A DNA stretch of 10,877 nt from Candidatus Altarchaeum sp. (GCA_018260615.1 JAGWDQ010000038.1:1-10877); one strand, 5' to 3'. Numbered from the stretch's first letter, positions 3,435 through 10,877 are shown. Notes: generated from the sequence alone by a model not told the origin. Translations and numbers: made by a program.

Positions 3435-3452
3435 CGTTAAAGTTCACCAAAG

Positions 3453-3751
3453 ATGAAAATTTCGTTTGAAATAAAAGACAAGGACATCACCTCACTTACG
3501 TTCACTTCGTTCGTGTATTTACAAAATGCTTTGCATTTTGTAAGATTGAAAATCTTGTAGATTTTCAGTATTTCAAATCTCTGCGATTTAAAAAATCTCG
3601 CAGATTTTTTAAAGATTGAAACCGAAGGTTTCAGTATTTTGAAAATCGTTCGGAGATTTCAGAAACAAGTTCTGAAATTGCGGGAAGGATTGGAAATCCG
3701 GAGATAAAGAATGAGAATAACAACATAAGCAAAACCATAGAAACACCCGCA
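3453..3751 (+). pseudogene. tgtA: Truncated, interrupted copy of the first 36 codons of tgtA
   Basis: 3453-3487 reads MKISFEIKDKD(I) and 3680-3751 reads AGRIGNPEIKNENNNISKTIETPA, versus MKISFEIKDKDIAGRIGKLEIENENNSMKKTIETPA at 9374. Split by a 191-bp insertion that gives a TAG at 3558-3560. Homology stops after codon 36. Confidence 0.9.
3488..3678. repeat. 191-bp composite palindromic (REP/BIME- or MITE-like) insertion made of short hairpins
   Basis: Hairpins: ttacaaaatgc-ttt-gcattttgtaa (3519-3543), tgaaaatct-tgt-agattttca (3547-3567), tttaaaaaatct-cgc-agattttttaaa (3587-3613), tgaaacc-gaa-ggtttca (3617-3633), atttcagaa-acaag-ttctgaaat (3656-3678). Removing it rejoins the tgtA-like sequence gacat|tgcg. 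Boundaries are ambiguous by a few bp. Confidence 0.85.
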
Positions 3752-3779
3752 TCAATACAGAATGCTTTTTGTTTTCCCA

Positions 3780-3816
3780 TCTAAATTTATTATACTTAAA
3801 TTTATTATACTTAAAT
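3780..3816 (+). promoter_or_regulatory. Probable promoter of mod: 15-bp tandem duplication TAAATTTATTATACT
   Basis: TAAATTTATTATACT at 3782-3796 and 3797-3811, plus a partial TAAAT. Each copy contains a TTTATTAT(A) TATA-like box, just upstream of ATG 3824. Confidence 0.45.
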
Positions 3817-9300: not shown

Positions 9301-9371
9301 AATTACCGGATGGTTATAAAAAATACTGGTTTGATAATTTTGAAAATCTGATGAATAAATTTAAAATTTAA
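6348..9371 (+). CDS. res: Type III restriction endonuclease subunit (Res): SF2 helicase-like ATPase plus PD-(D/E)xK nuclease, 1007 aa
   Basis: Walker A MATGSGKT (6765-6788), DEAH (7131-7142), motif III FSATF, EGWD, motif VI QSIGRGVR; C-terminal PDF...DPK nuclease motif (P918-D919, D936-K938). Starts 10 bp after the mod stop. Confidence 0.92.
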   Translation: MTDEEKQNPLLYQKIAEEMSYESLPYEWTNLNLDTFSENISLFDYQQDALKSAIKLLYYYFESLEKFQNAEKQLTNIERKKKFFNEIRRGEEDLLETLGITNKKNKLLFSKIKQYYEVIQKNSYEKIPFLHFVNRMCFWMATGSGKTLVLIKLIELLDKLKRTNLIPDNDVLILTSRDDLIEQIKVHIEKFNEKALRKIKVWNLTKYDDVKRGSVITSGKYTSGEDINIFVYRSDLISEETKTKLLGFEDIENNGKWYILLDEAHKGEKEDSKRQLFYSVLTRNGFLFNFSATFTDPWDIVTTVYNFNLEMFIEKGYGKNVYLSQQEMNALAEKQNDFSDKDKQKIVLKSLILLTLSKQAKQNINKQLNGKYYHNPLLVALVNSVNTEQSDLQIFFKEIEKIVKGNVDDGLLEQSKDELSQELSEHSGYVFGSECLNVKKEDLKNIKIKDILEHAFNSSSFGNIEVIKIPQNREELIFKLKTSEQPFALIKIGDISNWLKEKLSDYEINESYNNESYFRTISQDNNSVNILMGSRAFYEGWDSNRPNVMLFINIGKGDAKKYITQSIGRGVRIEPVKGKRKRLLPLKRENDVVAKEIYPALKEKDISLMETLFVFGTNRENLQHILDSIKYERESSGELIELRENEEIKGKTLLIPVYKNKEVVSVDQLPKFKGNGKILNDFIQWIGDERIIYSMFSHKSYVNPKTIQKVNDFLENEKNFNNSNQTGNIYYQIENLMSHVNITLKDIDKFKHLTDEIVHFKRIRVTLEKAKIEKLEKLIEKVRIYKDPSKEKEILKKKFSSGEINLDDYTVQIEILSKMSNEEEFSYNNITLKIKHLINHYYVPIIISENEKINYINHIINAGSERNFIKNLEKYIAEPDNFLKQFDYWMFCKLDEHLDKVYVPYYNKDHNKIENFKPDFIFWLKKGQNYFIIFVDPKGTKHTDYEYKVDGYKTIFEENDNTKQFLSDGLKIRVYLFLFTEDINKLPDGYKKYWFDNFENLMNKFKI

Positions 9372-9373
9372 AG

Positions 9374-10877
9374 ATGAAAATTTCGTTTGAGATAAAAGAC
9401 AAGGATATTGCAGGAAGAATAGGAAAATTAGAAATAGAGAATGAGAATAATAGTATGAAGAAAACTATAGAAACACCTGCACTGATGCCTGTTTACGGCC
9501 TGAATAATCCTATATTGAGCATAGACGAATTAAAGGAGAAATTTAACGCAAAAATTTTAATGACAAATGCTTACATGCTTTTTAAAACCGAAGAGAAAAA
9601 GAGCAAAGTAATTGAACAGGGCATACATAAATTTCTAAATTTTGACGGCATCGTTGCGGTTGATTCCGGAAGTTATCAGCTGATGAAATACGGAGATATT
9701 GACATAAGCAACGCCGAAATTTTAAAATTTGAGGAAAAAATCGGGGCTGAAATCGGCTCTTTTCTTGACATTCCGACATTGCCTGATGCTTATAAACGTC
9801 TTGCAGAGGAAAATTTACTCGTAACATTAAAGAGGGCAAAGGAAGCAAAGGAATTAAATTTAAACTTAATAATAAATGCGGCAATTCAGGGTTCAACATT
9901 TTCTGATTTAAGAGCAAAATCAGCAAGGGAAATTTCAAAAAATTTTGAATTGAATGCAATCGGCGGAATTGTTCGTTTGATGGAAGAATACAGATTTGAG
10001 GACCTGGTTAATATAATTGTAGCCGTAAAAAAGAACATTAAAGCGGGCAATGTCGTTCATGCCTTCGGATTAGGACATCCTATGTTATTTGGTCTGGCGG
10101 TTGGATTAGGTTGCGATATATTTGATTCTGCCGCTTATGCCTTATTCGCCAGGGATAAAAGGTATATTACAAATTACGGAACAAAGAAAATTTCAGAGCT
10201 TGAATATCTGCCATGCTCCTGTCCGGCATGCCACAACAAAGAGCCTGGTGATTTGGATGAGCATGACATCGCATTGCATAATTTATATGTATCTTATGAA
10301 GAAATCAGAAGAGTTAAGCAGGCAATAAAGGAGAATACTTTGTGGGAGTATATTGAAATGCGGGCAATATCACATCCGAGTTTATACAAAGCAGTAAAAG
10401 GACTGAAGCAGCACAGGAAATTTTTATCGGAATTTGACCCCATAACAAAACGCTCGGCATTCTTTGATTTCGGGTTTGACTGCAGGACTGAAATCTATAA
10501 TGTTAAAAGCAGGGCAAAGAATATTATCACCTCGCTACGCTCGGAGATTTTCAAATCCTCTGCGGATTTGAAAAAGACGGAAAATTTAATTAAAATAAAT
10601 CAGTTTGGAAATGTTCCGGGGGAAATTTTGGATATTTATCCTTTAAATGTTTTTGGAATTAAATCAAATGCAGGCGATGAAGAAAAAGTCAGGGCAATTA
10701 TGCAGTATCAGTTTGGAAAGGATGCGGATGATGTCTTAAATAAATTCAACCTGATAATAAAACGGTCCAGAAAGACAAAAAGGATAAGGTGGATTCATGA
10801 CACTAAAACAAAGGAATTGCTCGCAAGTGTCAGGGCAAGTGACCATTTCATTATTCCTCATAAAATGCTGGCATTGG
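9374..10877 (+). CDS. tgtA: Archaeosine tRNA-guanine(15) transglycosylase (archaeal TGT), 3'-truncated by the window edge (at least 501 codons)
   Basis: Open frame from ATG 9374 to the window end, translated by hand. Motifs ETPALMPV, DSGSYQ (D97), LDIP, IQG, AIGG, HAFGLGHP, DIFDSAAYA (D251), Zn site CSCPAC (C281/C283/C286) plus H302, and archaeal C-terminal region AIMQYQFG...LASVRASD. Confidence 0.95.
   Translation, partial: MKISFEIKDKDIAGRIGKLEIENENNSMKKTIETPALMPVYGLNNPILSIDELKEKFNAKILMTNAYMLFKTEEKKSKVIEQGIHKFLNFDGIVAVDSGSYQLMKYGDIDISNAEILKFEEKIGAEIGSFLDIPTLPDAYKRLAEENLLVTLKRAKEAKELNLNLIINAAIQGSTFSDLRAKSAREISKNFELNAIGGIVRLMEEYRFEDLVNIIVAVKKNIKAGNVVHAFGLGHPMLFGLAVGLGCDIFDSAAYALFARDKRYITNYGTKKISELEYLPCSCPACHNKEPGDLDEHDIALHNLYVSYEEIRRVKQAIKENTLWEYIEMRAISHPSLYKAVKGLKQHRKFLSEFDPITKRSAFFDFGFDCRTEIYNVKSRAKNIITSLRSEIFKSSADLKKTENLIKINQFGNVPGEILDIYPLNVFGIKSNAGDEEKVRAIMQYQFGKDADDVLNKFNLIIKRSRKTKRIRWIHDTKTKELLASVRASDHFIIPHKMLAL
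10528..10575. repeat. ~45-48 bp palindromic element inserted in frame in tgtA (encodes TSLRSEIFKSSADLK)
   Basis: cacctcgctacgctcggag followed by the hairpin ttttcaaatcc-tctgc-ggatttgaaaa (10548-10574). Shares the at|CACCTC left junction and the cgYtcggagattt motif with the 3488-3678 element. Confidence 0.75.

Follow-up and report, generated by a model that had tools for sequence, protein, structure and literature searches.

A Type III restriction-modification unit between two starts of tgtA in Candidatus Altarchaeum, a probable product of homology-driven insertion with long target duplication

The 10,877-nt stretch of DNA analysed here (GCA_018260615.1 JAGWDQ010000038.1:1-10877, hereafter the window), from the groundwater archaeon Candidatus Altarchaeum sp., raises the question of how the beginning of one host gene, tgtA, came to stand on both sides of a Type III restriction-modification (R-M) pair. 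Its relatives likewise identify the host as Ca. Altarchaeum. When recounted in the window, the first repeat block (3449-3487 versus 9370-9408) was identical at 37 of 39 positions and the second (3679-3751 versus 9409-9481) at 56 of 73. The left and right copies differed over codons 1-36 by nine synonymous and six non-synonymous codons; the initial annotation had read them as two different alleles that once worked, and our analysis supports this reading. Elsewhere in the 2.2-Mb genome, BLAST returned a single weak 36-nt match to the tgtA start, the two blocks themselves having E-values of 4e-11 and 1e-10 in the genome search. The features of the locus are as follows.

3367..3452, plus strand: sister-like upstream DNA, which heads an intact tgtA in the cassette-free sister strain L019
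3449..3487, plus strand: left block 1, four upstream bases and tgtA codons 1-12
3488..3678, no strand assigned: stacked-hairpin repeat of 191 bp, which splits the dead tgtA copy at codon 12
3679..3760, plus strand: left block 2, decayed remains of tgtA codons 12-39, derived from an older or a different allele
3824..6337, plus strand: mod, Type III, 837 aa, with DPPF at 407 and FLGSGTT at 659
6348..9371, plus strand: res, Type III, 1007 aa, with helicase and PD-(D/E)XK motifs intact
9370..9408, plus strand: right block 1, the start of the live tgtA
9374..10877, plus strand: live tgtA, tRNA-guanine(15) transglycosylase, running off the contig edge with its tail on contig C60

The live gene scored above the TIGR00432 cut-off (478 bits versus 350), which identifies it as an archaeosine tgtA, and it matched the tgtA of the empty sister L019 at 95.6%. 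The stop codon of res lies 2 nt upstream of its ATG. Between the repeats, the unit is 5,921 bp long and contains mod and res as its only ORFs, plus one non-coding hairpin repeat. The direct repeat occurs at a single locus and is 39 bp long without interruption, amounting to about 115 bp in all in the window and about 220 bp in the strain A3. To the left, window 3367-3487 was 98.3% identical to L019:9915-10035 over 121 bp, and left block 1 was identical at 39 of 39 positions to the right copy of the assemblies L102-L104; left block 1 would be the repeat through which the cassette gets lost or regained.

The contig comes from a metagenome-assembled genome rich in repeats, and the left copy had been flagged as a possible assembly artefact. 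This was refuted by even coverage over the whole window in the likely source run, by single contigs that bridge dead block 2 and mod (3630-4937) or res and tgtA (8241-10798), and by the same layout in the independent assemblies L005, L008, L026 and L102-L104. The two copies moreover differ by 23%, and the long relic of A3 described below was found again in a separate run (X3), all of which makes an artefactual origin of the duplicated-start layout hardly credible. In L102 and L104 the left flank is rich in repeats or gapped and possibly chimeric, and both were excluded from gene-order use.

We found res adjoining tgtA in four lineages, namely that of the window and L102-L104 (one sister strain in three assemblies), A3 (L005), L008/L025/L026, and the outgroup L126, in which a 78%-identical Res is followed by the tgtA of the most divergent lineage. 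Empty alleles, in which a radical-SAM (UPF0004) gene lies directly upstream on the opposite strand, were present in the window sister L019, in L006/L016/L023, in L020, in the L007 group and in L011/L024. Cassette-free strains exist in three of the four filled lineages as well as in the L007 lineage, L006 being the empty-site relative for the L008 lineage. Empty tgtA alleles thus do occur in related strains, as the initial annotation had anticipated, and the 5' end of tgtA is polymorphic for the insertion or deletion of mod-res. Both states were found in one sample (JGI 3300029891, with L019 empty and L104 filled), and in run X2 the contig with the empty joint 3485->9407 is deep and those with the cassette are shallow. 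L019 consists of the left upstream DNA of the window, block 1 and the live gene. The last ~78 bp of res are kept ahead of tgtA in L020, a remnant that proves at least one loss of the cassette; the direction of gain or loss is clear for L020 only, and L019 fits either. Strains now differ by the presence or absence of the 5.9-kb unit between the repeats, and in others an imprecise deletion removed it. In L007 a tandem 15-bp repeat (L007:3640-3750), the copy number of which varies among L007-lineage assemblies, lies upstream of the radical-SAM gene.

Because the divergence of res between lineages (81-88% nt identity) was of the same order as that of core genes, the res-tgtA junction appears to be about as old as the genus. 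The gene trees of four core genes conflict and do not settle the direction of gain or loss, and with this conflict both vertical residence and an old lateral spread would fit. This query did not find this res beside tgtA outside the genus. A junction of such age would also suit a local tandem duplication of the tgtA start, with mod-res already upstream and no transfer of an allele, but we consider this quite improbable, since the relic lies upstream of mod and follows DNA that, in the empty strains L019 and L006, leads into the intact tgtA, and since an outward pattern with foreign-looking cargo (methyltransferases, AbiE and surface proteins) recurs genome-wide.

Homology between the two copies had been placed as ending at an ETPA motif, which was put forward as a candidate crossover. 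In the window, homology continued past ETPA in decayed form to codon 39, and the dead copy in A3 reached codon ~73 after removal of two short hairpin inserts; in the window and in L008/L026 the relic ends after codon 39, and what follows it is the same in both. Because the A3 relic is longer and the nearest empty allele, L019, joins within the 39-bp block 1, we rejected the crossover, and ETPA instead marks a point of decay. The ends also differed by strain, with the relic stopping at codon 39 or ~73, the empty joint lying in codons 1-12 and further scars elsewhere. Left block 1 carried no private change, compared with seven in the 82 nt of left block 2, a difference which suggests that block 1 was refreshed by recombination with intact alleles.

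The 191-bp hairpin repeat had 358 BLAST hits in the genome and a fold z of -6.1, and the hairpin core motif occurred 100-240 times in the assembly G000. At the site of this repeat, A3 has a 42-bp hairpin form with the same ends. Dead tgtA copies carry hairpin repeats inserted at one and the same base, following codon 11-12 (window 3488-3678; L005:2207-2248; L104:~315-460), the L104 insert belonging to a different subfamily, and this hints at a putative preferred target in dead tgtA. A 48-bp hairpin element of the same family is also found in-frame (16 codons) in the live tgtA at window 10526-10573, and A3 is without it.

Which of the two starts is native was addressed by comparison with the empty alleles. 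Live codons 13-36 agreed with L019 at 71 of 73 positions, compared with 56 of 73 for the relic against either the live copy or L019, and block 2 of the relic was nearest to L007 (62/73) and A3 (60/73). In each lineage the live start is that of the empty allele of the same lineage, including a 3-bp deletion (L008 as in L006/L020; L126 as in L024). At face value, the cassette would supply at most the nearly invariant codons 1-12. The earlier proposal of a recoded start supplied by the island is unproven, and L019 may itself be a loop-out product with the live copy. It is possible, though we lean against it, that an older replacement took place, in which the window lineage received tgtA codons 1-36 and beyond with the cassette from a basal lineage; the former native start would then be the left relic, and a loop-out at block 1 would have left foreign codons 13-36 in L019-like empty strains. 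The affinity of the left block 2 to the L007 and A3 alleles speaks for such a replacement, as do the position of the window genome nearest the L007 lineage in EF-1alpha and S3Ae, the grouping of live block 2 with the outgroup L024 (90/98, not starred) and the closeness of the window res to that of the outgroup L126 (84.9%, versus 81% for A3 or L008 res). However, the shared states are also found in the more distant L014 and may be ancestral, the live start matches the empty allele of its own lineage in every case, variation along the gene is in any case highest in codons 18-31, and the trees of the 112-nt start, based on ~110 nt, did not settle the direction. An older replacement is compatible with the explanation that we prefer below and concerns direction only.

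As to the agent of insertion, no integrase was found in the unit in the window, L005, L008 or L102-L104, and the single tyrosine recombinase in the genome passed the archaeal XerA cut-off and failed the integron one. The initial annotation had offered two routes, a recombinase acting in trans and homology-driven recombination; the variable ends and the integrase-free unit tell against the former, and the latter emerged as the likely route. A site-specific recombinase that targets tgtA in trans, in the manner of dusA-associated integrases, would account for the recurrence of tgtA starts at the locus, which include a further dead start in L104 (three starts in all) and a different gene, on G000 contig C131, that begins with the tgtA upstream sequence and the first nine bases of tgtA. 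In addition, window 1-58 is a 98% copy of the last 58 nt of the tyrosine recombinase gene (G000 C79:53-110), which reflects either a neighbouring contig or another 3'-end duplication. We nevertheless consider a recombinase of this kind very unlikely, given the XerA-type score of the one tyrosine recombinase, the variation in relic ends, the same layout with unrelated repeats at ~65 unrelated genes, and a check of 16 loci from other Altiarchaeota families, in none of which a second tgtA start was found ahead of tgtA.

The notion of tgtA as an integration hotspot held in one respect, in that the locus has been hit repeatedly within the genus, but not in another, since with ~65 such sites in the genome tgtA is no special target. 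Besides the recurring tgtA starts, A3 has a PDC-S01 ATPase ahead of the relic, of which L008 retains a 5' stub and L006 a 3' remnant. A phylum-wide hotspot was rejected, as 0 of the 16 loci of other Altiarchaeota families had a second tgtA start, and a fragment in G024 was a contig overlap. The upstream sequence of L007 was considered as a res scar and dropped, the same sequence heading the dead tgtA start in L104 and the C131 cargo gene. Beside the radical-SAM gene, G000 C131:58-2635 (L144) contains a 91-aa ORF with a tgtA-type start, a second small ORF and a PDC-S01 ATPase that is split by a ~400-bp IS-like remnant and runs to the contig end. We found no publication on tgtA as an integration site or on such a layout in Altiarchaeota, in a literature coverage that was incomplete.

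We then considered the genome as a whole by counting low-copy, same-strand repeats that overlap gene ends. The count, made with a crude ORF caller and including some paralogues and repeat counts of one locus, gave 69 outward repeats (28 with a 5' end copied upstream and 41 with a 3' end copied downstream) versus 13 inward (p = 2e-10), with medians of 118 bp in length, 92% in identity and 1.6 kb in spacer. The outward density was 31 per Mb. Among the controls, which were small, unequal and fragmented, a complete genome of another family gave 3 in 400 kb, short contigs of a congener 1 in 191 kb and other loci 0 in 198 kb. Roughly 65 candidate sites in this genome are similar to the one at tgtA. 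Their cargo includes Type II R-M, AbiE and surface proteins, and two further sites are indels between G000 and L019, one in each direction, with repeats of 158 bp (G000 C16:6559-12732) and 244 bp (L019:13456-14804). The layout is general in this genome and not tied to R-M or to tgtA. Hairpin repeats were considered as the cause of insertion and are not required, a multi-copy repeat being present at the inner edge in 14 of 69 sites (9% background). The deepest stack seen was at G000 C104:1881-14336 (L109), where the start of thrS occurs four times with different cargo between the copies.

Taken together, the locus is probably best explained as an old, integrase-free Type III R-M unit that was placed at the start of tgtA by homology-driven recombination, the process known as insertion with long target duplication. 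Mod-res DNA joined to a tgtA start would have recombined with a second tgtA allele, the joint on the tgtA side being formed by homology and the opposite one illegitimately or through short homology; alternatively, a circle would have entered by a single crossover. Either way the whole gene would have stayed downstream, with a relic of at least 73 codons upstream. The relic decayed by hairpin insertion at codon 12 and by truncation after codon 39 in two lineages, so that a 39-bp near-perfect repeat remained. RadA-type recombination across block 1, together with allelic exchange, would keep both states in populations, and the same exchange between strains would swap the recognition region of mod; surviving sites would be those that leave the host gene whole, through selection. 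A repeat of 39 bp is short for efficient homologous recombination. We infer the founding mechanism, the original insertion being unobserved. No donor junction and no donor sequence upstream of mod were found, and the joints are old and eroded.

Comparable islands at gene 5' ends are known from bacteria, and SXT/R391 enters the 5' end of prfC. Insertion of R-M genes with long, variable target duplication was described by Furuta, Abe and Kobayashi 2010, first in H. pylori, with repeats over start or stop codons, and no archaeal case survived the screen of that study (PMC2853133). At tgtA, the R and M genes lie between repeats of more than 30 bp that are not multi-copy, the unit is below 20 kb and free of integrase or transposase, and related empty sites contain one copy (L019, L006), as in that system (PMC2853133). 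The locus is thus an archaeal case of a mode of insertion reported from bacteria, although the repeat here shows age and partial decay, a single locus carries stacked starts, presence and absence span the genus, and non-R-M cargo stands in the same layout at dozens of genes. In dusA-associated islands, likewise, the outer boundary is the original 5' end of a tRNA-modification gene, an intact gene comes after the cargo and R-M cargo occurs; however, those islands have their own integrase, semiconserved ~21-bp attachment sites and detectable excised circles (PMC4482086), in contrast to the present locus, which has no integrase, fixed site or proven circle and a live start that is not proven to be island-derived. 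Homology-facilitated illegitimate recombination has been invoked for stacked T6SS effector-immunity arrays, in which a conserved anchor gene end also stands beside swappable conflict genes and relics are stacked by successive events, but the anchor there is upstream and the relics are orphan immunity genes (PMC5361080). This route is said to be rare, and its demonstration came from transformable bacteria and not from archaea (PMC5361080). With its empty and filled sites in one sample, the tgtA locus extends to archaea a mode of R-M mobility known from bacteria, and accessory DNA of this kind would be missed by integrase-based island finders.

The hypothesis that repeat-flanked R-M units excise and re-invade (PMC2853133) can be tested directly at this locus, since the junction of the predicted circle is defined to the single base and both alleles are present in public samples. 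A Logan contig (L105) reads from res through block 1 into the hairpin repeat, the order expected if the unit is still excised and persists as a circle, made up of hairpin repeat, relic, mod, res and block 1, that re-enters empty alleles at block 1. The state of the left copy would fit as well, its upstream DNA and block 1 being fresh (98% to L019 and no private change, respectively) and its block 2 decayed, yet gene conversion or allelic exchange would also refresh block 1. The res of L105 is identical to that of L104, the right block 1 of which shares 39 exact bases with the left type; because these 39 bases exceed the 31-base assembly word, L105 may be a chimera of the assembly graph, and a 31-base graph can give its join where the integrated allele is in the minority and the empty one dominates. 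We treat the L105 junction as a lead and not as evidence. In three other assemblies the same res is integrated before an intact tgtA, and the unit has no replication or transfer gene, so a circulating form seems doubtful to us. We hold as equally speculative the wider idea that Ca. Altarchaeum gains and sheds most accessory genes by an active system that uses no integrase and moves cargo together with part of a core gene end, and that the tgtA cassette still cycles as a circle via the 39-bp repeat. If true, it would provide, in an archaeal population, the missing release-and-reinfection step proposed for repeat-flanked R-M units.

The cargo itself was readily classified. Mod matched PADLOC MTase_III (E 3e-287) and Res matched REase_III/ResIII, and their catalytic motifs were intact (DPPF and FLGSGTT in mod; Walker A, DEAH and PD..D-K in res). 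The pair resembles the PADLOC MTase_III PDLC03638 subgroup in its mod-res order, N6-methyltransferase and SF2 helicase/nuclease motifs, and in the exchange of the recognition region between strains. The enzymes appear to be ordinary for this widespread subgroup, and their activity is a prediction from sequence. The middle, target-recognition region of mod was exchanged between strains, with window 5260-5675 missing from L102-L104 and window 5225-5791 missing from L008/L025/L026, and mod and res differed in their nearest neighbours among strains; parts of the cassette have evidently been swapped between strains. Two CxxC motifs lie inside this swappable region, at Mod residues 577-597. A paralogous Type III pair (46-50% aa) was present in 4 of 4 genus genomes (G000 C119:11580-17040, which is L042; L043), with an extra 277-aa gene between mod and res in G003, and no flanking gene-end repeat was found at this pair (C119) in three genomes. 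An AT-rich motif precedes the dead start by 26 nt and mod by 23 nt; its positional enrichment was weak, and a promoter argument from it was dropped.

Further upstream, the window encodes a predicted surface protein of 562 aa without family (367-2055) and a DUF3137-like protein of 225 aa (2369-3046), both of which are missing from run X2 and are therefore strain-specific cargo. The short repeats that flank these two genes (155-294 and 2240-2330) recur genome-wide.
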